Below, in pieces: positions 1 to 22,419 of a DNA stretch of 64,000 nt. Positions within the stretch are counted from its first letter, which is position 1. Every line of letters begins with the position of its first letter. This DNA comes from an uncultured Planctomycetales bacterium (lineage in GTDB: Bacteria; Omnitrophota; Gorgyraeia; Zapsychrales; JAHFFX01), in NCBI GenBank assembly GCA_964612665.1, contig CAZTCI010000001.1, positions 712,624-776,623 on the forward strand, in the 5' to 3' direction. Position numbers and translations under genes: made by a program. A model generated the notes under the pieces. That model searched no databases. It had not been told where the DNA came from and worked only from the letters and a program-made list of their open reading frames with translations.

Positions 1-3000
1 TTTCCGCTTATAATATTCGCGTAGGCATTTGACTCTCCGGAGGCGGTTTTAATATTCGCAAGATCAGAAATTGTACCGCTTTTAATAACATTGTCCTTGG
101 CATCACGTATAGTAAGGTATTTCAGAGAGTCGTCTTTTCCATTAATCTCAAATGTATTAACAATCTTTTCACCCGAGGGCGCGAGATCGGTTCTGTTGAC
201 ATATAGTGGGAAGCTTGTTGATGCCTGATGATAGGTCTGATCGCCAAGATTAATGACAAGCGTTTGTCCATCGGATGATTTAACAACAGCCACTTGACCT
301 TTATCAGCTTCTGCGGTCATTGTTACTTGTGGATTTTGTAAACCTAAATTCTTTGCAAACGATTCAATGGTCTGTGGCGCGCCGTTCTCTTTATTTAAAA
401 GAACAATGGAGCCTTCTTTTAATTCCGCATCCTGTTTAAGTTCTCCGTTGATAACTGTACCGGGAATATACATGATCGCCGCGACTTTTTGTTGCGGCCC
501 CATATCAGCAGCCAATTCAGAGGGGTGGATAGGCTGGCCATTTTCGCCGATTAAAACTTTTTCAGCTTTGTCAATGTGTGTTTGATCAGGGTAGAAATGA
601 AGGACTTTAGGATTATCAACATCCGCCAATAAAACACCATTTTCACTGACGGGGCGATCTGGCAACATGGCAGATGCATGATTTCTATCGAGAAGCGGAG
701 CCAACTGTCCATTTTCATCTTTACCAATGGTGGCATGAACAATCATATCTTCAGGACTAATAACAGTGTCGCCCATCATGATGGTTGTTCCAGGCTTGAG
801 CTGCAGTCCCTTTAAATAAAATGAATCTCCATTTTGAGCAAAAACATCAATGGAACGATTGCTGCCATCTCTTTGATAACTTTTAACAACAACTCCTTCA
901 AGTTGGCGTCCATCGTCGGCGATGGCCATACTGGATCCTACAACTTTTCCATCATTACCAACATCATAAATCTTAGTGATCTGAACCGTCTGGACAGCTT
1001 CAGGTTGAGGTGATGGGTTCATACCGGTTAAGTCTTCTGACGTACTCGCCGTCTCGATGTTGACTGGTTTAGGCGCACCAATAAATTCTAAAGTTCTTAA
1101 AATCGGAACTCTTCCACCAGCTTGTTCAAAATGGGCACCAGGGCTTACCGCGGTCGAGTTTAAAATATTATTAGCATCCGTCACTGCAAAAGCAATGCGC
1201 TGCGCTCCGCCATTTACCGAAATTAAGGAATTGTTCGCTGAATCTACATTTTCAACAAACGTAAAATTATTTGGCTTTCCTGGAATGGGAACTTTCCCGC
1301 CAGCTTCGTTTTTATTTTCCTCTTTATTACTCGACATAAAATCTGGATTATAGACTGATCCTTTCGTACCATAGTATGCGTATTGCGGTAATAAATCTGC
1401 TTTAGTCCTGGCTGCGCTACTATACACATTATCAATTCCCGCAATCTGTAGAATGGCTGGGTGATTGCTAGCATCAAAGGTCTTTAAAATCCCTTTGGCT
1501 GTCGATTGTGCAGCGTCGGGAATAAGCGTGCTGGTTCCGTCTGTATTTCGAACAGAAAATTCTTTTCCTCCTTCTGTAACCGAAATGTTTCCCTTCACCT
1601 CTTTGCCTTGCCAATTAACTGAGGCTGTGCCTTCCCTCTTCCCCGTAAAATACGACCCCCAATTCCCATACAATCCCAATCCCCCGCCGGCGGTGACGAA
1701 AACAATGCCACCATTTTGATCAACAAAGACGTTACGATCTTTTGCAACAAGGGATAAAGTCGTTTTTCCGTCCGCGCTAAGAATGGCGTTAGAAGTACTA
1801 ATAGGCAGAGTTTTACCTTCATTAAGGTCGCCGGACTTAACAAATAAAACCGTTCCTGGGGTGCTCAGCGGCAATGGGAGTGTGCCTTGCAATGAGGGGT
1901 GGAACAAAATATTAAGATTAGGCGAAAGTGGCGCCCCGAATTGATTGATTAATTTTGTTGCAGCCGCACCATCCGACGGATTTGCCATCAATAAATCGAT
2001 GTTTCCTTTTCCTTTAAGTAAGATCGCATGTGTACCGCCTTCTACTGGGACCGCCCCACCACCGGACGATTCGCTGCCTTCTTGTGTCTCATCGATTTTA
2101 TGCTGACCTTTCAGAGTAATACCACTCGGCATATACAAGGACCCTTGGCCCAATAAGGTCAATTCTCCTTCTTTGCCAATTTTGACGCCAGTAAATTTTC
2201 CTTGTTCTTTTTGATTAAACCCTCGGGCAAACCCAAACCACCCGTTTATATCTAATCCTGAAAATTCTTCGGGTCCGACGGCTAATGGATTGTTTAAACT
2301 AATCACACCATTGTTTAAGACAACGCGTTTTGCATCAGAACTGGCAGCGCCGGCACCTGCTAAAATTTTATTCCCATCCCAAATGCCCGGCCCGGTGATC
2401 TTATACCCAATGATTCTTGAAATATCGGTTGCGAATTTACCATTTTTATTAAGATGTGCTCCATACCGATACGTTCCAATTTGTGAAAATGATGTCCATG
2501 GGATTGGATTTTCTTTAGATAGAACGGTCCCTGCCTTAAACGTAAAAACATTTGTTCCTCCAAAGGTCTCTCCTGGACTTAATACCGACAAGGAATGCCG
2601 TAAAAGTTGCACATCATGACCTGCGAATCCTTCACCAATGGTGATCTTTGCTCCATCTTCAATATTTCCGAAAAGATTAAGCAATGCACCGGCGAGAAAG
2701 GCGTATCTAAAATCTCCCTGAGCGATAAATCCAACATCCCAAATATTCCCTTTCTGGGATTTAATCGGTTGTAATTCAACATTTGACCCTGTGGCATCAA
2801 TTCCAACTTCCTGTGTCTGTGATTGTTTTTCTCCCTCACCGTAGAGGCCGCCTTCTTTTTTGTTGACGGTCTCTTGTTTTAAATTTTCTTCCAGGGTTAA
2901 GTGCCTGGTTGTGACATCGGCATCCGAAGAATAACCAGCAGCTTCACCTCGACGGGTCACACCTTCAAGACTGCTGGTACTGTTATTCGCCAGACTCAAT

Positions 3001-6000
3001 TCAGTTGGTTTTTCACCTTCAGCTAATTTTTCTAAATAAGGCTGCGCTGTAATCCGATCAATGTTACGATCAACGATTTCAGAACCATGGCCAAATAAAA
3101 TAGGAATACCTTTTTCACCGCTTGTTCCGCCAAAAATTTCGGCTTTGACTTTTTGTACAGGGACTGAATCTCCTTGTTCAAGTCCTATATGTGTCAACAC
3201 TGAGTTAGCTAACTCTTCGGGCGTTGATGATTCGATTGTCCCTTGAGCATTGTGAAAAATATCGTCGCCTTTTTCTGAAGCAACAAATTCACCTTTGCCG
3301 TTGTAATGTCCTGCAACATATGTATGGCCTGTCCAGCGTAAAACCGTTTTGTCCTGCGAATAATTCATAGCCATGGCCACTTTGGTCAAGGCAGCTTTAG
3401 TCTTATCTTCGATGACTTGGCCGTCCTTTTTAACTAACGTTTCCTTATTACCGCTGGTGTATATAACATTCACATTAGAAAAATAAATTCCGGGATCTAT
3501 ATCGGTTTTAAGAATATCTTTTCCTTCTTCCGATTTATCTTTTCTTAAGGTTATATATTTAATTCCCTTTTCACTTTTCAATTCCTCTTTTCGACCATAG
3601 AGTGGTTCTTTTAATGGGTTATAACCCCAATGTTGGTCGTCGATATATAGCTTACTACCATTCCCAAAAATAACTTCGCCGCCGGGAAGCTCCATAAAAT
3701 CCTCAGGCTTAGCCAAATTGATACTAAACAATTCAGGGGCGAGACTTCCAATCCCGGGAGCAAAATATCCAAACATTACCTCCATGGCCACATCTGGAAT
3801 TTTTCCTCCTTGTGAACCACCCATTGAACGAGCAAAGAAAAGAGAATTAGCTTCAGGGTTCTTATCTTCAGAGTCATAAACTAAAACAGGATTAAATGTA
3901 TAGCCCTCCAACTTGCCTCTATCATCGACCTTCAGTTCTAAAGTCGAACTCTTTTTTCCTCCAGAAGTTTCAGCTTCACCCGCTTTGGCATAACCTCCTA
4001 GCACTTTTTGATCATTAATAAATAAAGCTGAAAACATCTTGCCGGTAATATTGCTCTGTTTATTAATTTGTTCTGGACCCACTGTAGTCCCCAACCATTG
4101 GGTCGCAAGCCCTTCACCTGGAAAATTATTAGTTAGATTGAGAGTATTAAAAACATTTTCAGCTTCATCAGAATTTTTATCCGACTGTTCGAGCGCAACT
4201 TTCGTCGCATTTTTCGACTGAAGCGGTAGCCATGTTTCTTTGTTCCAGACTACATTGGTATTTCCATTTGGTTGGGGCATATAATAGAAAAATGTGCTGT
4301 CGAGAATGTTTTCTTTTTTACCATCTTCCTTTGTGACAGCAAGACCGCGATTCGATGTATTTTCCTGAAAATAAATTTTTCCATTAGAGTCGCCTTCTTG
4401 AGCTAGAAAAGATACGGTGGTATTAATGCCATCCCCTTGCGCAAAAAGTTTCGCCACGCCACTCGAAGTCAACGCCAGTCCAGCGGCTGCTGGAGACATC
4501 GCGGCATTGACAACTTTGGCTTCTTGAGGATTTTCTTCGCCGGGATTAATTTGACCAAAAATATTACGCAATGCCTTAACCTGCGCCAACGCTCCGGCCT
4601 GAGCAAAATAATTACCCGTCGCTATTAAACCGATTGTCTGCCCGCCGGGAAGAGAATAGCGGTCCACTGAAAAATCAAACTGCGGGCCTAAGTTATCGTT
4701 ATTAAATCCTATGGTTCTGTTGAAATGAATGTCGTGTGCCAGTTCCTCTGTTTTGTAAACCAATTTTTCAAAAGGTACCATTTCTGTTCCCGAAAGCATC
4801 CAATCATCCTTCACTTGAACATTAGCTGCTTCCTTCTCAGCGTCGGCGCGTGCAAGGCCCGCTTTATCCATTAAAAATTTAACTTTCGTTTCTTCTAAAG
4901 GCTCATTCGTACTTTGATTTAGAACCATTGTTACATATTGCGGGGTCGTCTGTCTCGCCTCGCCGATCATGCGCGTTAAATTTTGCACGCCTCCATTTTG
5001 CTGGCCGTTAATGTCAAAAACTTGTTGGGACAATAAAGATCGAGTGGACGAACCTTTGTAAGCAACAGTTAAAGCGTTCGTTGTTTGAGATTGACCTAGA
5101 AGCGCACCTAAAAATGGGCTGCCTAAAACGGGCAGGGCTTGAGTGTTCGCGGCTTTAAACCAAAAATTAAATTCTCCGCCGTTATTAATAATTGAACGGA
5201 TCAAATCGGGGCTGACTGTTCCTGTCAAAACAGGTGAGCTTCCCATAATCGACTGGACGGTTGGTATGATTCCTCCGTTATCTTTAAAAGGTTGTCCATC
5301 CGGACTAACAAGCACCGTTGGCAAGTTAACAAGGGCAGGACCAGAGGCAGAAATGCTCTGCAACTTATTAATCAATTTATCTAATTCTTTAGAAGATATT
5401 TTCTCGAGATCTTCAGGAGTGGCGTTATATTTTTGTTGCAATCGATTTAAGACAGCCTGTTTATCTGATCCTGATCCTGGTCGCAATTGAATTAACAGAC
5501 CCGCCAATTCTTTTGCCTGTGCCGGGCTCAAATAAACTTGCACACCGACCTTAGCTAAATCCATCCCCAACTTGGCAAAATCACCAGCATTGCCTGCTTT
5601 CCCATTAAATAAACTTAAATTCCAAACCTCGTTCCCATTTTTATCCTCGGCGACGTTCCCTAAAACATTTTTAGTCCCCAGCAAATATCTCAAACCAACT
5701 AAATTAACCGCCGTCATTTTACTTCCATCAGGACCGACGTTGGTCGCCCATGCCACGCGCCACTTTTTTCCGTCGTAACTAGGAATCCAACCGAGCCGGC
5801 GCGCGGTCATTCCCCATCGAGTTACGTCTATGAGCGGGGTCAAACCATATTCCAAAGCGGTCCTAACATTGGTGACATTGCCTGCGGGCAAACTGACATC
5901 TGTCAGATATTTCATCGGACCAGTACCGGGATTGATGACTGTAAAAAGTTGTTGAAGATATTCTTCTTGCAGTTTCTTTTTGGTGACAGGGGTGTCTGGT

Positions 6001-9000
6001 TGAAAGTTAGGAAGATCATAGGCGGATTTAATACGGACATACGGCATGTTGGGCCGACGATTGGATTCTTTAACGCTCTTCCAAATTTGATTTGCATTAT
6101 CGACAAACTGCAGATCAAATTGGCTCATGTGAACGAGCTGATCGACATAGCCAAGATAATTAACCAGTCCAGGAGTGTAGCCAGTCAAATTATATTCGGA
6201 TGTGTACTCGCCTTTTTCATCGGGGATAAATTTAGATCCGGTAAACCAGCCGCCGAGGGAATTCTGGGTAAAATTCATCCCGACAAAATTGCCGCCTAAA
6301 ATCTGAAATTGATTGACGGGCGCATAGAGAATCGTTTCTAAATTAGAGGCAGTGAAATCGCCTCCGTTAGTAAAGATCACATTATTATTGATGGGCGCTC
6401 GAAAATAATTAGAGTTACTTTCATCGACTGTCTTCCATTCAATCTTACTCACATCGACTGCCTCAGTATTGCCGGGCATATTAGCTTCGTCTCCCGTTGC
6501 CGTTGATGCGCCAACCGCGGCACCGCCTACAAACAAACCTGAAACCAGAAAAGCCAGTGCGCGGAATTCAGTCGGAGAAAGTTTAGAATGATACGGACTC
6601 ATGTGCGTGTCTTTCTTGTCAACGAGTTGCTTTTCAAGAAGACTCATAAAACCATAAATGGTTGCATTAACTGCGCCGGCCTTGAGCGCTTCCCAAACTT
6701 TATCACCCAGTTGAGCCGAGGGAATACCTCCGCTCCACACACCGTAAGCAAAGGCGCCGGTGGTGGAGCCGGCTTGCTGTAAAATCTGCGCCGCAGCACT
6801 GTCTGCTTTCAAACCGAAAGCACCGACGGCCGCGGCGGTAACAATAGCTCCGATACTCTGACTGGCTAAAAGTGGCAACTGAGTTTGAATAACAAGATAT
6901 AAAGCATCTGAAACAGATTCCGGAGCAAAATTTGGATTGCTATTATAGTTTTCCACAACAGATTGATGATAAGCGGCTGCTTTGATCGCTTGTTGTTCTT
7001 GCGGACTAAGAACTTTTCCATTGCTTTGGGCTTGAAGAGCATCTTGAGCATCTTGGTTGGCTTTATTGGCGAGCTCATGATTCTCCATGCCAAACTCCGC
7101 CCCGAATTTAGTGCCAGCATAATTATCTAAAAATGCAACTCCCCAAGTAAGGGCAACGTTGCTTGCAAAACTACTTAAGCCAGGAACCAAAAACTGTTTG
7201 AGAGATTTTGCGACTTCGCTGTTTTTATCGCCAAATATTTCATCGACGAGATTAAACACTCCAAACTCGACCAAACCTTTAACCTCACCAAGAACAAAAC
7301 CTTTAGCAAATTCTTTTCCAAAACCTGTTAAGACTTGACCAAGGGTCAAAGCAGGAAAAGATTTAGGCACGGCATAAGTTAAAACGCCATAACCATTCGG
7401 GATATTAGGGGGGGCTGTTTTCCGAACAAATGCTCCTCCTTCGGCAGTTAGCTTTTTTGCAGTAGCTTCACTCGTTTCAGATGCTACTTGGAACTGTTGA
7501 TCTTGCGTTGCGTCTTTAGCTAAATCCTTACTTAATGCTTGTTCCGATTGGTTACTTTGCTCTCCAGGATTCAAAGGCCCACCGCCAGGTTTGATCGTGT
7601 TCGCTGCTGCCGTCGTAGGAACATCCACCGGAGTCCAGGAACCGCCCCACAATTTAACTAATTTATCCATGGCCCAATTCAAAACTCTTACTAAAGGCGC
7701 ATAAACATACGCCGTCAATAAATTTTTAACCATCGTCCAGGCTGTTGCCAAACTCTTTCCAATTGACTGCAACATGCCGCTAAGAGTGACATTACCAACG
7801 CCAATGTTTCCTAGCGAAGTGATGCTGGTTTTGAGCATATCAGTTAACCAGTCCCCGAGTATACGGCGTGACAGGCTTTCCAAACCTGCTAAAAATCCTT
7901 GACTCGAGGCGGCTGCAGAGCTCAAGTTAACAGAATCAAGACTAGCGGCCCAATTCATTCCTGCCGACAACGCCGCACTCAACCCAACATTCAACAAAAA
8001 CCCAGTCGTCCCGTTACAAGCGCCTTTCATCTGGCAAATCGTGGTCAAAGTTTCCGCAAGCGCGGAGGCGCTCATCGCAATCACCCATGCCGCTTGAAAA
8101 GTTAAATTTGACCCAAAACCCATCATGCCAGCCACGTTTCCACCCACAGCCAGCATCGCCGTCTGCATCGCCACATTAATCGCAATGTCGCCCAAACTCA
8201 TTAAGCCCGGCAAATCTTTATAATGGCTGTGCCAAATAGATCCCCAAACAAAAGTCTGCATGGTCTCATCAACCGGCTCGTAAGCAATATTTTGTTTGTC
8301 CAAATCTTCCGCCAAAACAAAACCGGTTGATTGCTTAACAAAATCATCACGGCTCAGCATCATCGCATCGCCGGTGTCTGAAAAATAGACGTTCTTGTCA
8401 TCAATCTTGGTGATCATGACAAAATGCTCATTGCTGAAGTTAGCAATAAACGGAGGCTTAAGCGTTAGGATGTCTTGAGGATTTAGTTTCGCGGCCTGAG
8501 CTTTTAGGCCGTAGGCTTGCGCAACTTTGTTGATTGCAAAAAGAGAGGTTTTAAGTTTGGGTTGACCGGCTTCGATAACGTTGTTCGCAAAGTCAGCACT
8601 GAGTGTTAAAACAGAAATCTGTTCCAACGGTAAATTAATTTGATGCACATAAAGCCAATCGCGTAACGCATAGACACCGCAGTTTAATGGGTGAATATTA
8701 GGATCACGCAACCAATTGTCAATCCGTTGTATAGAATCGGAATTAAAAGATTTGGCTAACGTCAGATTGAGAGTGTACTTACTATTTTCGGATGCGCCTG
8801 TAATTGAATCAGGAATTCTTAACGCGACTTGCGTATTTTCTTGCTTGGGAAGCTGTTTTAAAAGATGTGTGAGCTCAATGGCAACTTTGGCTGTTGCAAC
8901 TGCTTGAGCTGAAAGCCCGCCATCTTCCGGGTCAACCGTGGTTTGAATATTGCGGGCGCTATTTGGATATAAAACATCAGGCCGATAGCTAAAAGACATT

Positions 9001-9236
9001 GCGGCTTCTTGCGGAATAAACGTAATCAAAACAATGGCGGCAACAACGCGAACCCAGAGTTTGATTCGGCTTATAAACGGTTTTCGGGAAAACGCAGAAT
9101 TGGCAGGATCTAATTGGGTGTCGGAAGAAAAAAAAGGACTATCTTGATTAATAATATTATTATTTATATTAGTAATCAAAGTTTCACTGTTTTCCTGAAC
9201 TTCAGAAGGTTTTTGAATGTCCATTCTGTTATTCAT
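1..9236 (-). CDS. giant (>3078 aa, 3' end beyond window) membrane-anchored surface protein: N-terminal TM helix + papain-like C39-like peptidase domain, Ala/Gly-rich hydrophobic region, then long G/N/S/T-rich beta-type region
   Basis: ATG at 9236 (seen as cat on the plus strand). Translating the minus strand gives MNNRMDIQKPSEV...RIKLWVRVVAAIVLITFIPQ (TM helix). It continues ...DNWLRDPNIHPLNCGVYALRDWL...NFSNEHFVMITKIDDKNVYFSDTGD. The Cys-Gly, His and Asp (16 residues after the His) have the same spacing as in the bacteriocin-processing C39 domains. No minus-strand stop in this frame through 9.2 kb: all minus-strand ORFs listed in the track for 1-9236 are in a different frame, and the track has no long ORF here because the reading frame never closes inside the window. 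Confidence 0.6.
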   Translation of the reverse strand, partial: MNNRMDIQKPSEVQENSETLITNINNNIINQDSPFFSSDTQLDPANSAFSRKPFISRIKLWVRVVAAIVLITFIPQEAAMSFSYRPDVLYPNSARNIQTTVDPEDGGLSAQAVATAKVAIELTHLLKQLPKQENTQVALRIPDSITGASENSKYTLNLTLAKSFNSDSIQRIDNWLRDPNIHPLNCGVYALRDWLYVHQINLPLEQISVLTLSADFANNVIEAGQPKLKTSLFAINKVAQAYGLKAQAAKLNPQDILTLKPPFIANFSNEHFVMITKIDDKNVYFSDTGDAMMLSRDDFVKQSTGFVLAEDLDKQNIAYEPVDETMQTFVWGSIWHSHYKDLPGLMSLGDIAINVAMQTAMLAVGGNVAGMMGFGSNLTFQAAWVIAMSASALAETLTTICQMKGACNGTTGFLLNVGLSAALSAGMNWAASLDSVNLSSAAASSQGFLAGLESLSRRILGDWLTDMLKTSITSLGNIGVGNVTLSGMLQSIGKSLATAWTMVKNLLTAYVYAPLVRVLNWAMDKLVKLWGGSWTPVDVPTTAAANTIKPGGGPLNPGEQSNQSEQALSKDLAKDATQDQQFQVASETSEATAKKLTAEGGAFVRKTAPPNIPNGYGVLTYAVPKSFPALTLGQVLTGFGKEFAKGFVLGEVKGLVEFGVFNLVDEIFGDKNSEVAKSLKQFLVPGLSSFASNVALTWGVAFLDNYAGTKFGAEFGMENHELANKANQDAQDALQAQSNGKVLSPQEQQAIKAAAYHQSVVENYNSNPNFAPESVSDALYLVIQTQLPLLASQSIGAIVTAAAVGAFGLKADSAAAQILQQAGSTTGAFAYGVWSGGIPSAQLGDKVWEALKAGAVNATIYGFMSLLEKQLVDKKDTHMSPYHSKLSPTEFRALAFLVSGLFVGGAAVGASTATGDEANMPGNTEAVDVSKIEWKTVDESNSNYFRAPINNNVIFTNGGDFTASNLETILYAPVNQFQILGGNFVGMNFTQNSLGGWFTGSKFIPDEKGEYTSEYNLTGYTPGLVNYLGYVDQLVHMSQFDLQFVDNANQIWKSVKESNRRPNMPYVRIKSAYDLPNFQPDTPVTKKKLQEEYLQQLFTVINPGTGPMKYLTDVSLPAGNVTNVRTALEYGLTPLIDVTRWGMTARRLGWIPSYDGKKWRVAWATNVGPDGSKMTAVNLVGLRYLLGTKNVLGNVAEDKNGNEVWNLSLFNGKAGNAGDFAKLGMDLAKVGVQVYLSPAQAKELAGLLIQLRPGSGSDKQAVLNRLQQKYNATPEDLEKISSKELDKLINKLQSISASGPALVNLPTVLVSPDGQPFKDNGGIIPTVQSIMGSSPVLTGTVSPDLIRSIINNGGEFNFWFKAANTQALPVLGSPFLGALLGQSQTTNALTVAYKGSSTRSLLSQQVFDINGQQNGGVQNLTRMIGEARQTTPQYVTMVLNQSTNEPLEETKVKFLMDKAGLARADAEKEAANVQVKDDWMLSGTEMVPFEKLVYKTEELAHDIHFNRTIGFNNDNLGPQFDFSVDRYSLPGGQTIGLIATGNYFAQAGALAQVKALRNIFGQINPGEENPQEAKVVNAAMSPAAAGLALTSSGVAKLFAQGDGINTTVSFLAQEGDSNGKIYFQENTSNRGLAVTKEDGKKENILDSTFFYYMPQPNGNTNVVWNKETWLPLQSKNATKVALEQSDKNSDEAENVFNTLNLTNNFPGEGLATQWLGTTVGPEQINKQSNITGKMFSALFINDQKVLGGYAKAGEAETSGGKKSSTLELKVDDRGKLEGYTFNPVLVYDSEDKNPEANSLFFARSMGGSQGGKIPDVAMEVMFGYFAPGIGSLAPELFSINLAKPEDFMELPGGEVIFGNGSKLYIDDQHWGYNPLKEPLYGRKEELKSEKGIKYITLRKDKSEEGKDILKTDIDPGIYFSNVNVIYTSGNKETLVKKDGQVIEDKTKAALTKVAMAMNYSQDKTVLRWTGHTYVAGHYNGKGEFVASEKGDDIFHNAQGTIESSTPEELANSVLTHIGLEQGDSVPVQKVKAEIFGGTSGEKGIPILFGHGSEIVDRNIDRITAQPYLEKLAEGEKPTELSLANNSTSSLEGVTRRGEAAGYSSDADVTTRHLTLEENLKQETVNKKEGGLYGEGEKQSQTQEVGIDATGSNVELQPIKSQKGNIWDVGFIAQGDFRYAFLAGALLNLFGNIEDGAKITIGEGFAGHDVQLLRHSLSVLSPGETFGGTNVFTFKAGTVLSKENPIPWTSFSQIGTYRYGAHLNKNGKFATDISRIIGYKITGPGIWDGNKILAGAGAASSDAKRVVLNNGVISLNNPLAVGPEEFSGLDINGWFGFARGFNQKEQGKFTGVKIGKEGELTLLGQGSLYMPSGITLKGQHKIDETQEGSESSGGGAVPVEGGTHAILLKGKGNIDLLMANPSDGAAATKLINQFGAPLSPNLNILFHPSLQGTLPLPLSTPGTVLFVKSGDLNEGKTLPISTSNAILSADGKTTLSLVAKDRNVFVDQNGGIVFVTAGGGLGLYGNWGSYFTGKREGTASVNWQGKEVKGNISVTEGGKEFSVRNTDGTSTLIPDAAQSTAKGILKTFDASNHPAILQIAGIDNVYSSAARTKADLLPQYAYYGTKGSVYNPDFMSSNKEENKNEAGGKVPIPGKPNNFTFVENVDSANNSLISVNGGAQRIAFAVTDANNILNSTAVSPGAHFEQAGGRVPILRTLEFIGAPKPVNIETASTSEDLTGMNPSPQPEAVQTVQITKIYDVGNDGKVVGSSMAIADDGRQLEGVVVKSYQRDGSNRSIDVFAQNGDSFYLKGLQLKPGTTIMMGDTVISPEDMIVHATIGKDENGQLAPLLDRNHASAMLPDRPVSENGVLLADVDNPKVLHFYPDQTHIDKAEKVLIGENGQPIHPSELAADMGPQQKVAAIMYIPGTVINGELKQDAELKEGSIVLLNKENGAPQTIESFAKNLGLQNPQVTMTAEADKGQVAVVKSSDGQTLVINLGDQTYHQASTSFPLYVNRTDLAPSGEKIVNTFEINGKDDSLKYLTIRDAKDNVIKSGTISDLANIKTASGESNAYANIISG

Positions 9237-9344
9237 GAACCCAAAATTGCACTAGCCAAATTACAAAATTACGGGCGCAAAAAAGCAGATTTTGGGGAAT
9301 TCTGGAACTGAGCCAAAGGTTAAAGAATTTTTTTTAGGTAATAA

Positions 9345-9368
9345 AAAACCCCTTGAAAAAGGGGGATA
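9345..9368 (-). terminator. rho-independent terminator (CCCCTT-gaaaa-AAGGGG then T-run on the minus strand) between tadC and the giant gene
   Basis: aaaaaaccccttgaaaaagggggataaa on the plus strand; the reverse complement gives the stem followed by TTTTTTATTACC. Confidence 0.5.
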
Positions 9369-9921
9369 AATGTTCAAAGCTAGAGGCTCTTTCCAGCCGA
9401 ATCATCAAACGATCTTCACGTCGAAGAATCCCAAAGGATTTCTTCAAAATTGCTAGGATGAATGTAATTTTTTGGTTATTTGGGCGCACGTTTGACCGTT
9501 TATTCGGTTGTACTTTAACTTTGCATTAAAGTATAACATATAGTAGGCCTCCACTTCTTATTAGTCAAGTTTTTTTACGAATTTATCTTATTTATTTCTA
9601 GCAACTTATGCTTCTAATAAATTTCTTTTAAAAATCTTTTTGATAATTTTAGGGTTCACTCAGATCGCTCACATTCTCTTGAGTATTTGGGAAAGGTCAT
9701 TGATTTTTTCAAAATGTTAATTGTCATTCTCGACGAGAATTACAAAAATATTATGAAAATGCGTTAGACGGATAATTAACTTTTGTGGGAGCAGAATGGG
9801 TAACGAATGATAAAAAAATTGACAAAAAAGCAAGCGTTTCCTAAGTGGCCGGCATTTTAGGAGGCCACTTAACTTAAGATTAGAACAGAATGGACAATTT
9901 GCCTAGAGTGGACAATATACC

Positions 9922-10806
9922 CTATTGTTTAGTCAGCTGGGCGAGAGGATTATTTTCAACGAAATCGAGGAATATTGGGCCCGCCACCAAGATACCTACA
10001 ACTGGGAAGATAAAAAACAAAAGTGGGACAAGCATTTTAAGAGGCGCTTTCATGGCCAACTGTTCCCCACGGCGAAAACGGGCTAGCCGCATGTCTTCCG
10101 ATAAAATATTTAAAGCTTCAGCGACCGAGGTTCCCATCTTGTCCGCCTGGATTAACGTTCTGGCCAGCGTTGAAAGATCCGGGAGGTCATACTTTACCGC
10201 CAAATCTTTAATGGCATCACGCCGCGCTTTACCGAGATTAATTTCTTGCATGACAGTATTAAACTCGCGAATAATAACAGATGGCGGCGATTTTTCAACA
10301 ACCCATTTCATTGCCAACATAAAGTCCAGCCCGGCATTAACACAAAGGCGGAGCAAATCAATCGCATCAGGCAATTCTTTTATAATGGCGCTTTTAATCT
10401 TTTTAATTTTACCTTTGAGCCAAAACTCCGGAGCCATATATGCGATTCCGAAACAGCAGGCCAGCCAAATAATAAACATCTGCGGACTTACCATATTAAA
10501 GGTCAGAATAATAAAAAAAACAAAAACCAATTCCTTGACCAAAAAATATTCTTCAGGCGTCATGTTGACATGAGCGATTTCCAAATCTTTCAGCATTCTG
10601 ACCCGAACCGGCCCCATTGTAAAAGGCTTATTAATAAGGGCGAGCTTTCTAATAAAAGAAAGAATCGATCTTTTTCTTTTTAAAGCCCCGACCTCAAAGC
10701 CCGTAAACCCCTGCAACCGCGGCCGGCTTTCCCACTCTATCGGCGAGACGCCCAGTATAAAACTAAACACCGAGATAAATACCATCATAGAAAAAACTGT
10801 AATCAT
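9922..10806 (-). CDS. tadC: Flp pilus assembly inner-membrane platform protein, TadC/TadB family (T2SS F domain)
   Basis: 294 aa, multiple TM segments; GspF/TadB-C-like cytoplasmic domain (…AIIKELPDAIDLLRLCVNAGLDF…); adjacent to second T2SSF paralog. Confidence 0.75.
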   Translation of the reverse strand: MITVFSMMVFISVFSFILGVSPIEWESRPRLQGFTGFEVGALKRKRSILSFIRKLALINKPFTMGPVRVRMLKDLEIAHVNMTPEEYFLVKELVFVFFIILTFNMVSPQMFIIWLACCFGIAYMAPEFWLKGKIKKIKSAIIKELPDAIDLLRLCVNAGLDFMLAMKWVVEKSPPSVIIREFNTVMQEINLGKARRDAIKDLAVKYDLPDLSTLARTLIQADKMGTSVAEALNILSEDMRLARFRRGEQLAMKAPLKMLVPLLFFIFPVVGILVAGPIFLDFVENNPLAQLTKQ

Positions 10807-10818
10807 ATTTTCCTCACT

Positions 10819-11682
10819 TTAAAAATTCTTAAAGGTGCTGATCTTCCAAATAAAAAAAGCACCGATGATTTCTGAAAAAAAGGAATAAATCAACATCGCC
10901 CGGCCCAAAGACGACTTCATCATATGGATTAAAAAATCCGGTTTTGTCGACTGAACAATAATAAGAAATCCTATCGGCAAACAGGACATGACAATGCCTT
11001 GAATTTTTCCCTGCAATGTCAATGTATCGATATTTTGCTGGATTTTTTTATTTTCGCGAATGGTGTTTACGATGCGCGTAAAAATTGCCGGCAGATTGCC
11101 TCCCGTTTCGCGCGCCAAAAGAATCGCCGTAATGGTTTGCTGAAGTGCCGGCGAAGGCATTCTTTTATATAAATGATTGAATGCCTCGTCGAGAGCCACT
11201 CCCATTTTATTTTCACTTAAAACCATGCCGAATTCCTGATCAATCGGCTCCGGCATTTCCTCGACGACCGCTTCCATCGCTTGAACCAAACTCAATCCAC
11301 CTCGAAACGAACTCGACATAATCATGAGTGCGTCGACCAGTTGATTGGCAAATTTTTCTTTTCGTTTGCTGATCAGCATTTTGGCATAAAAACCGGGCAA
11401 TATAAAACCAATCATAAAAAGAGCAATGACACCTATGAGCCGGATAGCCGGTGGAAAAACTATAAAACCGATAATGGCCCCAATGACAGGCGCCAACAAT
11501 GAAGCGCCCGTCATTTTTTTGGAATCGGGTTTCATTAACATCCGTTCCATCTTAGTCGCAAATGTAGGGGCTGCGCGCCTTTCACCAATCACAACAGCAC
11601 GATTCGCAAAAAGGGGCATGGCCGTATAGCCCAAAATAAATACTGAAAGGAATATAAAAAAGAGGAGTATTGGAATGGCCAT
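10819..11682 (-). CDS. tadB: Flp pilus assembly inner-membrane platform protein, TadB/TadC family (T2SS F domain)
   Basis: 287 aa; TM helices plus T2SSF-like domain (…FANQLVDALMIMSSSFRGGLSLVQAME…). Confidence 0.75.
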   Translation of the reverse strand: MAIPILLFFIFLSVFILGYTAMPLFANRAVVIGERRAAPTFATKMERMLMKPDSKKMTGASLLAPVIGAIIGFIVFPPAIRLIGVIALFMIGFILPGFYAKMLISKRKEKFANQLVDALMIMSSSFRGGLSLVQAMEAVVEEMPEPIDQEFGMVLSENKMGVALDEAFNHLYKRMPSPALQQTITAILLARETGGNLPAIFTRIVNTIRENKKIQQNIDTLTLQGKIQGIVMSCLPIGFLIIVQSTKPDFLIHMMKSSLGRAMLIYSFFSEIIGAFFIWKISTFKNF

Positions 11683-11727: not shown

Positions 11728-12048
11728 TCAATTATCGCACTCACTCCGACGACAACCGCTAATGCTGCTTTTGATACAACCTACATTCGATAATGAAATA
11801 CAATTAAAGTTGTCTGCGCACTTTGAATCGTACCAGACGTTAAAAAATTGCGGATCGAATTTACATTCGATTGTTTGTTTAGGATCATATTGCCGGCCCG
11901 AACCAAAAGCATCACCCACAGACCGCCAGTGTCCGGCGATTCCCCGGAAAATATATTTCTGAAAAAAAATCAAAGCGCCAATGACAAAAAGAAGCATTAC
12001 TATGTACTCCATGGTAGAAACGGCTTTGTTGTTGGAATATTTTTTCAT
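11728..12048 (-). CDS. Flp-type pilin-like protein with Cys-rich C-terminal extension
   Basis: KAVSTMEYIVMLLFVIGALIF matches the class III/Flp leader (A/G-XXXX-EY then hydrophobic helix). It shares the RGIxGxWRS..D..G.QYDP motif with the other pilin paralogs; C-terminus has 8 Cys. Confidence 0.6.
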   Translation of the reverse strand: MKKYSNNKAVSTMEYIVMLLFVIGALIFFQKYIFRGIAGHWRSVGDAFGSGRQYDPKQTIECKFDPQFFNVWYDSKCADNFNCISLSNVGCIKSSISGCRRSECDN

Positions 12049-12084
12049 ATAAAGTGCGTTCTAAAACTAACTAAAATTTAATTG

Positions 12085-12347
12085 CAAATCTCAAATGTCA
12101 AAATCCAAATCAATTCCAAATTTTTTAATCCCAAACTGCTCTGACTTCTTTGTATTTCGGATAATACTACTTAAAATCAACAACAACTCTGTACTTTCAA
12201 TGATTAACCAAACCAACTCATTCTTATGTAATTCTTCCTTTCGGCAAAATTAAAGGCCCTATCATAGATGTTGAATTTTCTATTGCTTGACATTGGAAAT
12301 TTAATGATTTATTTGTCATTTGACATTTGGTTTTTGTCATTAATTAA
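12085..12347. repeat. intergenic repeat element copy 1 (26-mer caaatctcaaatgtcaaaatccaaat ... 27-mer tgacatttggtttttgtcattaattaa, with ~180-bp insert between); putative promoter/operator
   Basis: Exact 26-mer at 12085-12110 and 27-mer at 12321-12347 are both repeated at 17655-17680 and 17710-17736. TGACA-N10-TGTCA inverted half-sites. Lies just upstream of the pilin gene 11728..12048. Confidence 0.7.
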
Positions 12348-14797
12348 AACGGCGCATAATCACAGCTCACAAATTTTAAACTAAACCCGCGCTGAGTCCG
12401 GTCAGGACCTGAACCACCTGAACCATTGTGAAAGAAATATTCCGCGCACGTACGGCTCATAACCCCGTGCTCAAGGATGGCATTAACATAATCCCAACAC
12501 GCCGGGGAATCAGTGCGGCGGTTAATCATAAAAGCCTCAGGTGCTTCTTTACTGATGACATCTTTACATACAACATCCAGAGTATTTGGGCTAGGAATAG
12601 ATGATGTAACGGACGGATGTCTAAATTTATACCGCCACACATCCAGCCCCGTCGGTAATTTAATGGTTGTGTCTTTATCTTCGTCCCAGCGGATGACTTG
12701 GGATTTAACAGTTGCGCCAAGGAAACACTTCCGGGCGTTCGAATAATCGTCGGAAGAATCACAACCCCCATAAAGATGAAAGGCATCGCCGAGAGAATAA
12801 CAGCGCATCAAACCCCACATCGTCGTATACGTTTTTATCTTGGCGAGTTTTGGTTCTTTTATTGTTAAGCTCGCGTTATCCGCTTGGTAACAACGGCCGT
12901 TACACCGTCCAGGAATACGTCCGTCAACCCGCACGATATGCCATTTGGCCGAAGATTTAGAAGGATTGGTCGCCGGCGTTTTCCAGGCATAAATGGCTTC
13001 ATTAGGTAAAGGAACCAAGGCCAAATCTTCAATGCGCAGACGTTCTTTACGCAACGCCTCGCCCGCGTTAATGATGTCCGTAAAATGCGACATCGCGCTC
13101 GTGAAGAAATCTCTTAGATATTTAACTTCATTCTCGCGGGCCGCGAGAAAATTCCGTCGGCGTTGAAGTTTTGCCTGCTGATTGACACTTTCATTACCGC
13201 TTTGTACAAGTTTAGGCTGCCAGAATGCGGCGTAATTATTGCCGTCTCCCGCCGCGACGCTTGATGTTCCTCCGACGACAGGATCGGTAAAAGTATTTAA
13301 GCAGCTTCCCTTAGCTAACTTCCAGGATGCCACCGCCGCATTATAAAGAGGATTCCCTGGTCCCCATGTGCCGCACACGCCGGCATTGATGGTATAGGCC
13401 GCGGAACATGTGGCTGTTAGTCCTGAAAGATTAAGAACATTAAGATCGCAGACAATCGATTCGGTTGGCGTAAAAGTTGTTGGTCCTCCGACGGGCGGCA
13501 AGGTTCCCTGACCGATGACCGTTCCAGAAGAGTTATAACATTTATAATCCAAAGAGTTGTCCGCATCTCCAGTACTGTTCCATGAAAAGGAAGTTGGCGA
13601 ATTCGCTGGTCCTTGGCCTGGAACAAACGTTGCCGTACACGACGGACACGGACCGCAATCCCCCGGACAGTTTTTACATGTTTCCGTAAATTGCGACCAT
13701 CCTGTCTTTTCGCAGACACCGTTACCGCAAACAGGGCACGCTCCGCAATCTTGGGCACAGGTTGAACAGTCTTCATTGGCGTCGCATGTACCGTTGCCGC
13801 AGTAAGGACATCCTGCCGGATCAGCCACGCATTGTGTCATTACGTCACAAGCGTTTGGACAGCTTCTTGTTTGCAACCGTGTTCCCAGCGGACAGCCGCC
13901 TGTGCTACAAACAGGATCGCTCACCCACGACGAGCAAATACAACAATCTGGATTATCGAGAAGGCATTGTGTTGTTGCCGAACAATTATAGGTGCAGCTT
14001 CTCGTCTGGTACATATAGTTCCCAAGACAGCCCCCAGCACCGCAGCCGGCATTAGCGAAAGCGGTGCAGGAATCACCCAAACACTGCAATTGCGTCTGGC
14101 AGTTGGCAGGAATACAAGTCCGCGTCTGGCTCATTTGATCAGCAGGACAACCATTGCCGCAGCCACTATTAGCAAAATTACTACAATCGCAGGGAGGATT
14201 AATATTGGCGTAAATTCCGGTATACACATTATTGTAATTAGGACCATTATTAGTGAGCGTTAATCCGATTAATACCGTTATGCCTCCAGTCCCTCCCATG
14301 GACCATCCGTTAATTAGGGGAGCGCACTCAATTATCCATCCGCTTGTTAAACAGCCGGTATCAGTTTTTGATTGTACCCCCGTCGCTATCTGCCCGGCAG
14401 GACACGTAAGGTTGATATAACTAGAACCGGTGGGGCTCATACAGCGATTACAATTCGGTTGATTACCATTAGGAACAGCCACAAACTGGCTACCGCCACC
14501 ACACGTACCTGAGCTGGCGCCTATTCCGACGATACCATTAAAAGCGGTAACAATAGGTGTGCACGGGGCAACTATGTTGTCTGCTCTATTATCGCTACTA
14601 AAGGAGGTTATGGCTTGGTTCACTGGACACGACGAGGAAGAGTCAGCAAAAGCTTTCGAGACAGAAAGCATTAAACAAAGGGAGAAAATACTTCCAACAC
14701 TAAATAAAATCTTCGCCGAGAAAGACCGCATCAGCCCAAATTGTTTATTTCTTTTGAAATGAAACATATGTCCTTTATAAATTTTGATAAGCTTCAC
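12344..14797 (-). CDS. secreted cysteine-rich protein (817 aa) with tandem ~40-aa Cys modules; putative pilus-associated adhesin/tip protein
   Basis: N-terminal signal peptide (…SLCLMLSVSKAFA). Three tandem modules GCGxGxC…QTRxC…NC…TQC, then CGNGxC-type repeats. No recognisable enzyme motifs. Confidence 0.55.
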   Translation of the reverse strand: MKLIKIYKGHMFHFKRNKQFGLMRSFSAKILFSVGSIFSLCLMLSVSKAFADSSSSCPVNQAITSFSSDNRADNIVAPCTPIVTAFNGIVGIGASSGTCGGGSQFVAVPNGNQPNCNRCMSPTGSSYINLTCPAGQIATGVQSKTDTGCLTSGWIIECAPLINGWSMGGTGGITVLIGLTLTNNGPNYNNVYTGIYANINPPCDCSNFANSGCGNGCPADQMSQTRTCIPANCQTQLQCLGDSCTAFANAGCGAGGCLGNYMYQTRSCTYNCSATTQCLLDNPDCCICSSWVSDPVCSTGGCPLGTRLQTRSCPNACDVMTQCVADPAGCPYCGNGTCDANEDCSTCAQDCGACPVCGNGVCEKTGWSQFTETCKNCPGDCGPCPSCTATFVPGQGPANSPTSFSWNSTGDADNSLDYKCYNSSGTVIGQGTLPPVGGPTTFTPTESIVCDLNVLNLSGLTATCSAAYTINAGVCGTWGPGNPLYNAAVASWKLAKGSCLNTFTDPVVGGTSSVAAGDGNNYAAFWQPKLVQSGNESVNQQAKLQRRRNFLAARENEVKYLRDFFTSAMSHFTDIINAGEALRKERLRIEDLALVPLPNEAIYAWKTPATNPSKSSAKWHIVRVDGRIPGRCNGRCYQADNASLTIKEPKLAKIKTYTTMWGLMRCYSLGDAFHLYGGCDSSDDYSNARKCFLGATVKSQVIRWDEDKDTTIKLPTGLDVWRYKFRHPSVTSSIPSPNTLDVVCKDVISKEAPEAFMINRRTDSPACWDYVNAILEHGVMSRTCAEYFFHNGSGGSGPDRTQRGFSLKFVSCDYAPF

Positions 14798-14825
14798 GTC
14801 TTCAATTTTCTCGAAACGCTAACCC

Positions 14826-17657: not shown

Positions 17658-17736
17658 ATCTCAAATGTCAAAATCCAAATGAATTTCAAATGTTTTAATT
17701 TCCAAACCTTGACATTTGGTTTTTGTCATTAATTAA
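17652..17736. repeat. intergenic repeat element copy 2 (compact form, same 26-mer and 27-mer as copy 1)
   Basis: 17655-17680 and 17710-17736 identical to copy 1 motifs; immediately upstream of/overlapping annotated start of the 943-aa gene. Confidence 0.7.
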
Positions 17737-17848
17737 CGCTGTGTGCAAGTTTCTCTTTATCCGTTTGGGGATTTCAGCCTAAATTAGCCAAGTCGCGAGA
17801 AAATGAAGCTAATTCCCTATGTAGAAAAAAACTTGCACATCGCGTTAA

Positions 17849-18118
17849 TTACCAATTATTAAACACCAAATTCATCTTTGTGCCCCGATAAAAATCGCCG
17901 TCTAACTGATTGATCGGGCTGTTTGTATCTAAGCCTTGCCAGCTCTCCGAAACAGGCTTAATCAAAGACTTCTCATGCGCATCCCGACGGTAAACAAGGT
18001 CCAGCGCTGACCATCGAAAAGCCTTAAGGCAGGCATAGCCGAGCAATAAAGCAATGATGATGCAAAATGTAAATTCGAGAGTCACCTGCGCTTTTTCTTT
18101 GAACATCTTGTTGTCCAT
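17849..18118 (-). CDS. TadE-like pseudopilin (about 90 aa)
   Basis: Internal Met gives MDNKMFKEKAQVTLEFTFCIIIALLLGYA (A/QVTLEF + hydrophobic helix). Track ORF 17849..18235 has an implausible upstream extension overlapping the next gene. Confidence 0.5.
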   Translation of the reverse strand: MDNKMFKEKAQVTLEFTFCIIIALLLGYACLKAFRWSALDLVYRRDAHEKSLIKPVSESWQGLDTNSPINQLDGDFYRGTKMNLVFNNW

Positions 18119-18149
18119 TCTTCGGTTAAGGTGAAGAGGCCCGTTTCGG

Positions 18150-18662
18150 TTAACGGTAACGGTTATCGGTTTTTTCAAAATTACTCCATGCCTCAGCCAA
18201 TTTATAAATCTGGCGACCAGATTTATCGTAAGCATCTATCAATTCATCGCAAAGTTTTATATCTACATTCTGTGGATAAATATCTCTACTTTGACTCAAA
18301 CTTACAATCATTTCATTAGATTCAGCCATTGCATCATCGAGATATTTTTGAAAGCCAGCTTTTTGATGCCGCTTTGCATATCCTTCAGCTATTAACCGCG
18401 GAATTGCTTTGGAAGCTCGGCGGAGCTGATCTATTATTGGCCTTTTCCTTTCCAAAGAAAGGTTGTTCTTTTCGTCATCGAAGAGAAAAGGCCTAATATT
18501 GAGTTTTGTTGCATCCTTTGGATTTACAAAACTCAATAAATCATCTTCTTCGCATTTTGGCAGACAGGGAAGAATCTTTTGCATAACAGTGGTCATTGAT
18601 TTATAACTATCTTGATAAACTGTTAAATCTCTAAAGCTGGTAATTCGCTTCTTTTCTTCCAT
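18150..18662 (-). CDS. four-helix-bundle protein (23S rRNA intervening-sequence protein / bAvd-like family)
   Basis: SFRDLTVYQDSYK … DQLRRASKAIPRLIAEGYAKRHQKAGFQKYLDDAMAESNEMIVSL matches the conserved QLrRAavSIpaNIAEGygR…F…A.GS..E core of this family. Confidence 0.65.
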   Translation of the reverse strand: MEEKKRITSFRDLTVYQDSYKSMTTVMQKILPCLPKCEEDDLLSFVNPKDATKLNIRPFLFDDEKNNLSLERKRPIIDQLRRASKAIPRLIAEGYAKRHQKAGFQKYLDDAMAESNEMIVSLSQSRDIYPQNVDIKLCDELIDAYDKSGRQIYKLAEAWSNFEKTDNRYR

Positions 18663-18733
18663 AAGTTGTCTCTCACGTTGCCTTAACCAAAAACCGAAAC
18701 CGGCTTCCTAACCTTAACCTAAAAATTCACAAA

Positions 18734-20119: not shown

Positions 20120-20387
20120 CAGATCTGTCGACGCGGTTGGTCCAGACTCCGTTCAGCGTCGTGTCATTAACCGCAACAATTTGCATTTCTTCATTGGCAA
20201 CACGGCTATAGTTAATAATGGTATTTGAAACGCGCGGATCGTATTGGTCTCCTAAATCATCAACTGTACTTCGCCACCGTCCGGAGATGCCTCGTTTCAT
20301 ATAATTGCTCATCGCAATAAAAGCACCAATGATGACCATTATCAAAACCGTGTATTCAATCGTCGATTGTCCTTTGCGTTTAAACAT
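20073..20387 (-). CDS. Flp-type pilin paralog G (104 aa)
   Basis: MFKRKGQSTIEYTVLIMVIIGAF… (G/QSTI-EY); KRGISGRWRSTVDDLGDQYDP family motif. Confidence 0.7.
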   Translation of the reverse strand: MFKRKGQSTIEYTVLIMVIIGAFIAMSNYMKRGISGRWRSTVDDLGDQYDPRVSNTIINYSRVANEEMQIVAVNDTTLNGVWTNRVDRSDALETKTGDTIIGGY

Positions 20388-20423
20388 TGAATCCTCTTTT
20401 ATTTGAAAAGAATAAAAACAAAT

Positions 20424-20837
20424 TTAATTATCCGCATTAATGGTGTTTGAAAAACCTAAATTTGAAACTGAATTGGATATAACATCGCCGGAATCATTGT
20501 AAATAAAATCAATGGCGCCGGAATTTTCTTTCCGGCTTTTATTTGTATTAGACCTCGTCGCTGAATAGGCCTGCATCAAATAGCCGCCGTAAGGCACGAT
20601 CCGCTGGTCAGATTCATTTTGTATGCCAACCTGATCAGCCGTGACCTTAATAACACTTTGAATACCGCGCTTACAAGCGTTAAACATCGCAAACAAAACC
20701 ATGGTCACAATTCCAATTAAAAGCATGTACTCCATCATGCTCTGAGCGGTTTTATTTTTTAAGAAATATAGACGGGTGGACTCGGAAGAAGCCGCCGTTT
20801 CCGTCAATAAGAATTTTTTTTTATCGACAAATTTCAT
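20424..20837 (-). CDS. Flp-type pilin paralog F (start uncertain, up to 137 aa)
   Basis: …KNKTAQSMMEYMLLIGIVTMVLFAMF (A/QSMM-EY); CKRGIQS… motif; start codon overlaps stop of paralog E (TAATG). Confidence 0.55.
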   Translation of the reverse strand: MKFVDKKKFLLTETAASSESTRLYFLKNKTAQSMMEYMLLIGIVTMVLFAMFNACKRGIQSVIKVTADQVGIQNESDQRIVPYGGYLMQAYSATRSNTNKSRKENSGAIDFIYNDSGDVISNSVSNLGFSNTINADN

Positions 20838-21226: not shown

Positions 21227-21400
21227 GTCTTGTTGCTATCATTTTTGTAATTATATTTGTAATAAAAACGGCTATGATTCTGGTTTTGCTGAACGTTAAA
21301 AAGTGCTGTCCCAAAAAACATGGCTTACCCCTCGTCGGGTGACGATTGAGTAAGCCATGTTTTTTGATCTATAGAACAACCCAACTCTATTACCGACGAG

Positions 21401-21724: not shown

Positions 21725-21782
21725 TGATTAGTCCTCCTTAAAATTAGACATAAAGTTGCTTGCTTAACAAATGAAGCGGGTA

Positions 21783-22139: not shown

Positions 22140-22192
22140 TTATTTTTCCTCCTCGATGTGAATAAAACAAACCTGATTTCCCATGATTTAAG

Positions 22193-22390: not shown

Positions 22391-22419
22391 TTATATTCCT
22401 CCTTGAACAAATAATGACG

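Follow-up and report, generated by a model that had tools for sequence, protein, structure and literature searches.

An Omnitrophota giant gene, seen in its 5′ portion and encoding an N-terminal C39 peptidase domain, beside a Tad/Flp-type locus near a probable bacterial replication origin

We describe a window of 64,000 nucleotides of bacterial DNA (contig CAZTCI010000001.1). Its minus strand carries, at positions 3–9236, an Omnitrophota giant gene that is cut off on its 3′ side, a member of a class that has already been described and that includes some of the longest genes known. The visible 3,078 residues of the product comprise a hydrophobic helix, a C39 cysteine peptidase domain with its catalytic triad, helices rich in small residues, two helices that resemble transmembrane (TM) segments and a polar tail. 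The reading that we favour, and consider probable, is that this is a membrane-anchored giant protein equipped with a C39 protease, the tail of which is displayed for contact with a host or prey cell. With its orphan tail the gene enlarges the class by one member and is not a new kind of gene.

The initial annotation of this DNA had reported more than 8 kb of uninterrupted coding sequence with its 3′ end outside the window, and both statements are borne out. One minus-strand frame is free of stop codons from 9251 to 3 (3,083 codons) and leaves the window still open, while the other two frames contain 159 and 280 stops over the same interval. Base composition predicts about 189 stops, and the probability of encountering none is about 1e-82. 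In each of ten 300-codon blocks, this frame is the one favoured by a codon model that was trained on the window's housekeeping genes. The start codon is the ATG at 9236, and Met1 and Asp6 of the protein are retained in homologues (alignment A1). Three independent Logan assemblies (SRR12313478, -79 and -80) carry identical DNA for the gene. The longest of them shows no mismatches to the window over 18,461 nt, has a gene call that begins at the same ATG and extends the product to at least 3,894 residues, the contig ending inside the gene. A look-up of Logan contigs added 27 residues of sequence past the window edge; a metagenome scan aimed at lengthening the open reading frame (ORF) beyond the window found nothing. 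The open frame, the codon signal, the identical assemblies and the conserved first residues together lead us to conclude that the ORF is genuine, begins at 9236 and continues past the window edge. The two peptides quoted in the annotation are present, NVAMQTAM... at residue 352 and VAVVKSSDGQTLVINLGDQTY at about residue 2986; the frame contains neither frameshift nor stop, and the protein matches no RHS or adhesin family. Homologues are absent for most of the sequence, as might be seen if the frame were open by chance, belonged to a pseudogene or had been created in assembly, but such an origin is refuted by the stop statistics, by the codon signal in every block, by the agreement of the assemblies and by the conserved N-terminal module and collinear tail matches discussed below. 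We assign it a negligible probability.

Omnitrophota giant genes encode products of up to 85,804 residues. They are preceded by gspD/E/F, rcpC and a gene for a Rotamase_2 peptidyl-prolyl isomerase (PPIase), and a C39 domain is found at the N-terminus near a signal peptide (West-Roberts 2023, 10.1101/2023.11.21.568195). Tad complexes and giant ORFs occur across the phylum (Seymour 2023, PMC10066038). For example, in V. archaeovorus LiM the Tad locus is located at 12–30 kb of the genome, beside a gene for a protein of 39,678 residues (PMC10066038). According to the account of co-culture work that is given there, the Tad complex is expressed and peptides of the giant protein are threefold up in attached cells (Kizina 2022, cited in PMC10066038). 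One architecture cluster of 24 proteins has PF03412 as its sole Pfam domain (2026 preprint, 10.64898/2026.06.07.730766). An antiparallel β-helix tubule has also been reported for the class (West-Roberts 2023, 10.1101/2023.11.21.568195). The class has been proposed to consist of surface proteins with which the cells attach to, or attack, a host or prey (10.1101/2023.11.21.568195; PMC10066038).

We place the gene in this class because every feature that can be checked fits, the judgement being made on the 5′ part only. Firstly, the genome is of the Omnitrophota type. When loci were drawn from one genome per species, 25 carried the N-terminal module, all in assemblies of uncultured bacteria; 18 of these are labelled Candidatus Omnitrophota or Omnitrophica and seven bear another label or none. 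At 21 of the 24 loci where both genes are seen, TadB and TadC are 51–69% identical to those of the window; lower values apply to loci L025 and L027 (43–46%) and to the tadC of L026 (41%). Secondly, a locus for a secretin, TadA, TadB/TadC, RcpC, a PPIase and proteins with class III signal peptides lies upstream. Thirdly, of the two peptidase types of the class, C39 and S8, a C39 domain stands near the signal peptide. The gene thus compares well with the ‘Archaeovorin’ or ‘Dockerin-type’ giants, typified by the 39,678-residue protein of Ca. Velamenicoccus archaeovorus LiM. It comes from the same phylum, occupies the same site just downstream of secretin, GspE, GspF, RcpC and PPIase genes and small class III signal-peptide genes, and encodes the same combination of an N-terminal C39 domain beside a signal or anchor helix, several TM-like helices, poor conservation and few or no domains. 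In contrast to those proteins, residues 1–3078 contain no glycosyl hydrolase, glycosyl transferase, methyltransferase, SecA-DEAD, dockerin, TSP3 or CAZyme domain, although such domains could be encoded farther 3′, and the tail has no detectable close relative. The size criterion of the class is more than 90 kb (more than 30,000 residues), to be set against at least 3,894 residues here, the window ending within the gene.

The C39 domain matches Pfam family PF03412 with an E-value of 2.3e-10, scoring 40.9 bits where the cut-off is 22. An AlphaFold2 model, for which a 12-sequence alignment was used, has predicted local distance difference test (pLDDT) scores of 84–95 over this region. Foldseek matches the model to the double-glycine protease LahT150 (6mpz), PCAT1, the ComA peptidase domain (PEP) and the C39-like domain of HlyB, entries 5xe9 and 3b79 being among the hits, with target TM-scores of 0.6–0.73 for the four stand-alone domain chains. 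In the profile alignment Cys186, His271 and Asp287 fall on the Cys, His and Asp of 6mpz, and all three are invariant in the family alignments (A1 and A2), so that the domain looks catalytically competent. The spacing of 16 residues from His to Asp is the same as that in ComA.

The predicted papain-like fold, the Cys/His/Asp triad and a passing PF03412 score are shared with the C39 domains of the PCAT/AMS transporters (LahT150, PCAT1 and ComA PEP). The arrangement differs in that neither Pfam nor NCBIfam finds an ABC transmembrane or nucleotide-binding (ATPase) domain after the C39 domain, which is fused instead to the giant polypeptide; nor is there any enrichment of motifs resembling the double-glycine leaders that go with such exporters. 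The peptidase domains of PCATs are cytoplasmic, whereas that of the giant protein is probably extracytoplasmic since it follows an anchor helix predicted to insert with its N-terminus inside (N-in). The catalytic Cys is retained, unlike in HlyB, where the domain is degenerate. A further likeness is to FapD of the Fap functional-amyloid secretion system, also a C39 peptidase outside an ABC transporter and tied to the export of a surface protein. The NCBIfam match is weak, however (E 0.009; 15 bits against a family cut-off of 330), Fap genes are absent here and FapD itself is a stand-alone protein of 224 residues.

Around this domain the family-conserved part of the protein can now be delimited as a module of about 500 residues, comprising the anchor helix, a C39 domain in which the triad is preserved, and a helical bundle that carries a conserved CxMKGxC loop. 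The N-terminal polar segment, which ends in basic residues, is probably cytoplasmic by the positive-inside rule. The helix that follows is conserved in the family, with the consensus VFVPEQASWAFNYNP in alignments A1 and A2. The motif FVWG..W....LPG (residues 329–345) links the C39 domain to the helical module. Three helices surround the CxMKGxC loop (residues 401–407, positions 8016–8036) in this module; it has an amphipathic periodicity of the α type (z 3.6), and AlphaFold2 also predicts helices, but with pLDDT scores of only 30–50. Beyond a polar linker, the second A/G-rich region contains two strong TM-like segments (residues 789–807 and 893–911, with Kyte–Doolittle peaks of 1.68 and 1.86), which together with residues 58–82 form the strongest hydrophobic peaks of the protein. 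Overall, the visible part has three strong and about three weaker hydrophobic helices. An Ala/Gly-rich hydrophobic region had been annotated after the peptidase domain; the enrichment in Ala and Gly is confirmed, but the region extends over about 600 residues, to about residue 950, and not over about 250. The features of the gene and its surroundings are listed in Table 1.

Table 1. Features of the giant gene and the adjoining DNA in the window; aa, amino-acid residues of the giant protein.
Feature	Positions	Strand	Evidence
Giant ORF, 5′ part, 3,078 codons from ATG 9236	3..9236	-	Open frame, conserved start, Logan calls, codon statistics
N-terminal polar tail, aa 1-57, basic end SRKPFISRIK	9066..9236	-	Sequence
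Signal-anchor or signal-peptide helix, aa 58-82	8991..9065	-	Kyte-Doolittle peak 1.8
α/β pre-domain and C39 cysteine peptidase domain, aa ~109-335	8232..8912	-	Pfam, AlphaFold2, Foldseek
Catalytic triad, Cys186; His271; Asp287	8679-8681; 8424-8426; 8376-8378	-	Profile alignment to 6mpz
Family-conserved hydrophobic helical module, A/G/S/M-rich, aa 346-540	7617..8201	-	Conservation, periodicity, AlphaFold2
Polar P/G/Q/S/T/E linker, aa 541-620	7377..7616	-	Sequence; AlphaFold2 coil and low-confidence helix
Second A/G-rich region, aa 621-950	6387..7376	-	Kyte-Doolittle; weak family conservation at aa ~600-880
Polar, cysteine-free, non-repetitive tail, aa 951-3078+	3..6386	-	No domain, homologue or repeat matches
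Tail block resembling the giant protein encoded at locus L006, aa ~1751-2514	1695..3986	-	phmmer, BLASTP
Promoter-like site and leader of ~200 nt ending in a terminator-like hairpin	9339..9568	-	Sequence scan and comparison
tadC-like (9922-10806) and tadB-like (10819-11682) genes	9922..11682	-	Pfam T2SSF
Remainder of Tad/Flp-type locus	11728..31633	-	Pfam; pilin N-termini; synteny

A profile of the first 350 residues, searched against 1.84 billion proteins, retrieved 550 cluster representatives, of which 124 have E<1e-30. These proteins begin with the module and reach lengths of up to 7,820 residues. Of 27 relatives, 22 have a giant ORF that continues beyond the DNA retrieved, with visible lengths from 741 to more than 3,700 residues (more than 3,600 in 15). 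Identity between the N-terminus of our protein and those of the relatives is 32–44%, lower than the 51–69% given above for TadB and TadC, and conservation ends at about residues 420–540 in many of them and at about 700–830 in a few. Past about residue 540 we obtained 13 weak matches among some 50 family members, and these are collinear (Spearman ρ 0.93, p 3e-6, n = 13). The best phmmer match aligns residues 1751–2466 with residues 2124–2824 of the L006 protein (E 1e-17), and BLASTP gives 28% identity over 400 residues in the same block. Because the matches are collinear, we read the tails as products of vertical descent from a common ancestor with very fast divergence, and not as shuffled domains or unrelated cargo. 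At locus L001 the C39-headed ORF (6050–15736) stops after 3,228 residues, and 16 nt further on another frame (15752–24988) begins that stays open for more than 3,079 residues. Either the giant gene is split at this locus or the interruption arose in sequencing or assembly.

The composition of the tail was correctly recognized in the annotation as rich in Gly, Asn, Ser and Thr, which account for 31.8% of residues 951–3078 compared with 21.4% of the housekeeping proteins of the window. In the visible protein there are only three cysteines, namely the catalytic Cys186 and the loop pair Cys401/Cys407. After residue 410 there is none in 2,668 residues, compared with an expectation of about 22 (P 3e-10). 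Cysteine-free sequence is common among proteins that cross the outer membrane unfolded. The loose repetition that had also been suggested for the tail is not upheld: the best BLASTP score of one tile against another is 21.2 bits, compared with 21.6–23.9 bits for shuffled tiles, and at the DNA level the output of Tandem Repeats Finder is limited to two trivial arrays, 15 and 19 bases in extent (scores 30 and 38). As to the β-type character also suggested there, hydrophobic periodicity gives a weak β signal in residues 2351–2700 only (z 1.9), too weak to assign secondary structure. Pfam searches with nine overlapping tiles at E<=5 produced matches at chance level only, and a PDB sequence search with the whole protein produced none. 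In a collection of 5.8 billion proteins the whole protein has two matches, both confined to the N-terminus, and residues 2100–3078 have no homologue.

How the protein might be arranged in the cell can be proposed from these features. The N-terminal helix would insert N-in, so that both the C39 domain and the tail come to lie at the outer surface of the cytoplasmic membrane, to which the conserved helices would anchor the protein. The tail would be presented in the envelope or on the surface and, together with the Tad-like pilus, would serve in attaching to a host or prey cell or in attacking it. The peptidase would most likely cut the giant protein itself, or a partner, after a pair of small residues, leading to maturation or release. 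We infer the outward orientation of protease and tail from the basic residues ahead of the first TM helix, from the cysteine-free tail rich in Gly, Asn, Ser and Thr, which is typical of exported proteins, and from the linkage of the gene to a secretin and pilus locus. These same observations speak against a model in which the protein, although membrane-anchored, has its bulk in the cytoplasm (the ‘TM-only’ topology class) and acts as a scaffold or multi-enzyme platform, as does the lack of any enzyme or regulatory domain in the Pfam tiles. Such a model is left open for TM-only giants by the 2026 preprint (10.64898/2026.06.07.730766). The number of genuine TM segments that follow the C39 domain is uncertain, which would allow the tail to lie on either side. 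We regard the cytoplasmic arrangement as unlikely but deserving of consideration.

Several observations count against the displayed, membrane-anchored protein that we prefer. The topology is derived solely from hydrophobicity and charge rules and, given five or six candidate helices, a cytoplasmic tail would be equally compatible with them. Among the visible 3,078 residues we detect no adhesin, lectin, hydrolase or repeat domain. A single-sequence AlphaFold2 calculation on residues 2140–3078 gave a mean pLDDT of 33 and an unusable model. We find the protein no richer than expected in motifs that resemble double-glycine leaders. Finally, the presence of a hairpin after tadC and of a separate promoter-like site suggests that the giant gene is not simply a member of the Tad operon. 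The possibility of an adhesin that was raised in the annotation is retained, as it agrees with the literature on the class, with the Tad-pilus context and with the cysteine-free polar tail, but no domain match accompanies it.

The protein is long and has A/G-rich hydrophobic segments like those of some phage tape-measure proteins, and its C39 domain recalls type I and PCAT exporters. A tape-measure protein, an RHS/YD polymorphic toxin or an RTX/BIg adhesin secreted by a type I secretion system (T1SS) might accordingly be considered, and we judge these other classes of long protein to be very improbable. Searches of Pfam, NCBIfam and PHROGs detected no RHS, RTX, BIg or tape-measure match, the only PHROG match being to the C39/ABC-transporter N-terminus, and there are no repeats. 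Neither phage genes nor ABC/MFP/TolC genes occur nearby, and the gene is placed near the origin amid housekeeping genes. The tape-measure-like function put forward in the annotation is therefore rejected. A fibre is likewise unsupported because there are no repeats and no evidence of a coiled coil or β-helix. An RHS/YD-repeat toxin was rejected for want of Pfam or NCBIfam matches and of repeats, and a giant RTX/BIg adhesin for want of Ig-like or RTX repeats and of adjacent T1SS genes. The adhesins LapA, SiiE and MpIBP are also very long, polar and poor in Cys, and some of them are processed by a dedicated cysteine protease. However, they have tandem Ig-like repeats, C-terminal RTX/T1SS signals and neighbouring T1SS genes, none of which is present in the visible giant gene or its locus.

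A more intricate relationship with the neighbouring Tad/Flp-type locus, which occupies the same strand at 9.9–31.6 kb, can be envisaged. The giant protein might be the cargo of the Tad machine, freed from its anchor by the C39 domain and extruded through the RcpA secretin, so that the Tad-like locus would constitute a dedicated secretion system. The strict adjacency to tadB and tadC in more than 20 loci is consistent with this, as are a protease domain that is positioned directly past the anchor and appears to have its triad intact, the conserved FVWG..W....LPG motif between protease and helical module, and the absence of Cys from the tail. On the other hand, the giant protein lacks a class III signal peptide, a conserved GG site was not found, the gene has its own transcription signals and no Tad system is known to export non-pilin cargo. 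We think it improbable that the protein is exported in this way. Equally speculative is an extension of the idea in which the anchor helix, an active extracytoplasmic C39 domain and the helical bundle would act as a launch module, the Tad-like apparatus, with its secretin–TonB_C fusion and Cys-rich accessory proteins, would serve as a dedicated machine to process giant, fast-evolving polypeptides and to extrude or display them, and expression would be gated by the terminator-bearing leader, which is similar to a c-di-GMP-I riboswitch in some relatives. If true, the launch module and Tad-like machine would represent a secretion route with no described equivalent.

Between tadC and the giant gene there are 685 nt in the window and 0.6–2.8 kb in the relatives. 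A terminator-like hairpin lies past tadC; it was recognized by eye and not called by the scan. A promoter-like site (TTGACT..TACTAT) follows, and then the conserved ATGTTATACT at 9539–9530. The leader ends with a terminator-like hairpin (9364–9349) and a T-run, 113 nt before the ATG. In about 19 of the 27 relatives the motif ATGWTATACT occurs 160–480 nt upstream of the giant ORF, and terminator-like hairpins precede the ORF in 13; the distance from motif to terminator is 199–212 nt in seven loci, that of the window included. The loci listed for these leader features are the window, L001, L005, L007–L009, L016–L018, L020–L023 and L025. Several of the hairpins are alike and show one compensatory change (AGACTACC/GGTAGTCT versus AGGCTGCC/GGCAGTCT). 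At L001, L005, L008, L009 and L017 a Shine–Dalgarno (SD) sequence and ATG open a short ORF (MKRALTKIQ...) that runs into the hairpin; the leader of the window does not align with this block. The leader could be an attenuator or a small RNA. Rfam gave no credible match to the leader of the window, and comparison of the intergenic region with the relatives by BLASTN and nhmmer detected only AT-rich promoter similarity.

In three relatives the leaders contain full-length, sub-threshold Rfam matches to the c-di-GMP-I or c-di-GMP-I-GGC aptamer, on the correct strand: L006 9692–9775, L011 9601–9697 and L016 9529–9633 (plus strand). The scores are 23.5–25 bits (E 0.008, 0.0008 and 0.024, respectively), and none reaches the Rfam gathering score. 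Each of these sites precedes a terminator, GGGCUGCCGAAA...UUCGGCAGCC, with a U-run. The sequence AGCCACGGR recurs in the three leaders and also upstream of the giant genes at L002 and L019. The giant-gene literature that we compared makes no mention of a leader or riboswitch at these genes, but pilZ genes downstream of giants and GGDEF domains inside them have been noted (West-Roberts 2023, 10.1101/2023.11.21.568195). We treat the link to c-di-GMP-I as a lead, not a result. The promoter-like site and terminator-bearing leader, c-di-GMP-I-like in three relatives, nevertheless provide a testable handle on regulation.

The Tad/Flp-type locus encodes a SurA-like PPIase, RcpC, an RcpA secretin–TonB_C fusion, a TadZ–TadA fusion, pilin-like proteins, a TadG-like protein of 461 residues, Cys-rich proteins of 943 and 817 residues, a further pilin, TadB and TadC. 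The order 461-residue pseudopilin, 943-residue protein, 817-residue protein, pilin, tadB, tadC and giant gene is common to more than 20 loci. At least eight pilin-like genes have N-termini of the G/xxxxEY type. As a neighbouring locus, rather than as a comparison for the giant gene, it resembles the Tad/Flp (type IVc) pili, including those of predatory Bdellovibrio and like organisms and the Kil system of Myxococcus, with which it shares TadB, TadC, TadZ/TadA, RcpA, RcpC and multiple Flp/TadE-like pilins. The Omnitrophota type differs in the TadZ–TadA and secretin–TonB_C fusions, in the insertion of the two Cys-rich proteins and in always being trailed by a giant gene.

Some further details of the locus are of interest. 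No A24 prepilin peptidase was seen in it. The pilin array consists of at least seven Flp/TadE-like genes for 65–137 residues on the minus strand, at 20073–22686 and also at 11728–12048, 17849–18235 and 18734–20119; class III signal-peptide N-termini (K-G-Q-S-T-L-E-Y type) and larger pseudopilin-like proteins are found among the products. Two fusions are unusual: a ParA/MinD-type TadZ domain is joined to the TadA (T2SSE) ATPase, and the RcpA secretin carries two C-terminal TonB_C stretches (25435–27603 and 27608–29827, minus strand). The proteins of 817 residues (12344–14797, minus strand; 58 Cys) and 943 residues (14826–17657, minus strand; 39 Cys) are extremely rich in Cys, match no Pfam or NCBIfam family and have no CxxCH motif. 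They hold their position in more than 20 related loci, and the giant tail is by contrast free of Cys. A gene of the 23S_rRNA_IVP family (18150–18662, minus strand), which encodes an Avd-like four-helix bundle, lies between the genes for the 461- and 943-residue proteins, which adjoin in the relatives. A diversity-generating retroelement was considered on its account but is not evident, as Pfam detected no reverse transcriptase among the 30 larger ORFs of the window, a scan that leaves out five ORFs at 56–63 kb and all small ORFs.

The window covers the origin region of a bacterial chromosome. The genes dnaA, dnaN, gyrB and gyrA are located at 36.5–44.4 kb on the minus strand, and yidC, parA, parB and further housekeeping genes follow on the plus strand past 45 kb. 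The sign of the GC skew switches near 44–45 kb. A probable replication origin lies at 42900–45050, where the GC content is 0.31 and matches to the DnaA box flank dnaA (42958–43069 and 44465–44514). The giant gene is about 35 kb from the origin, and transcription of both this gene and the Tad locus runs with replication.

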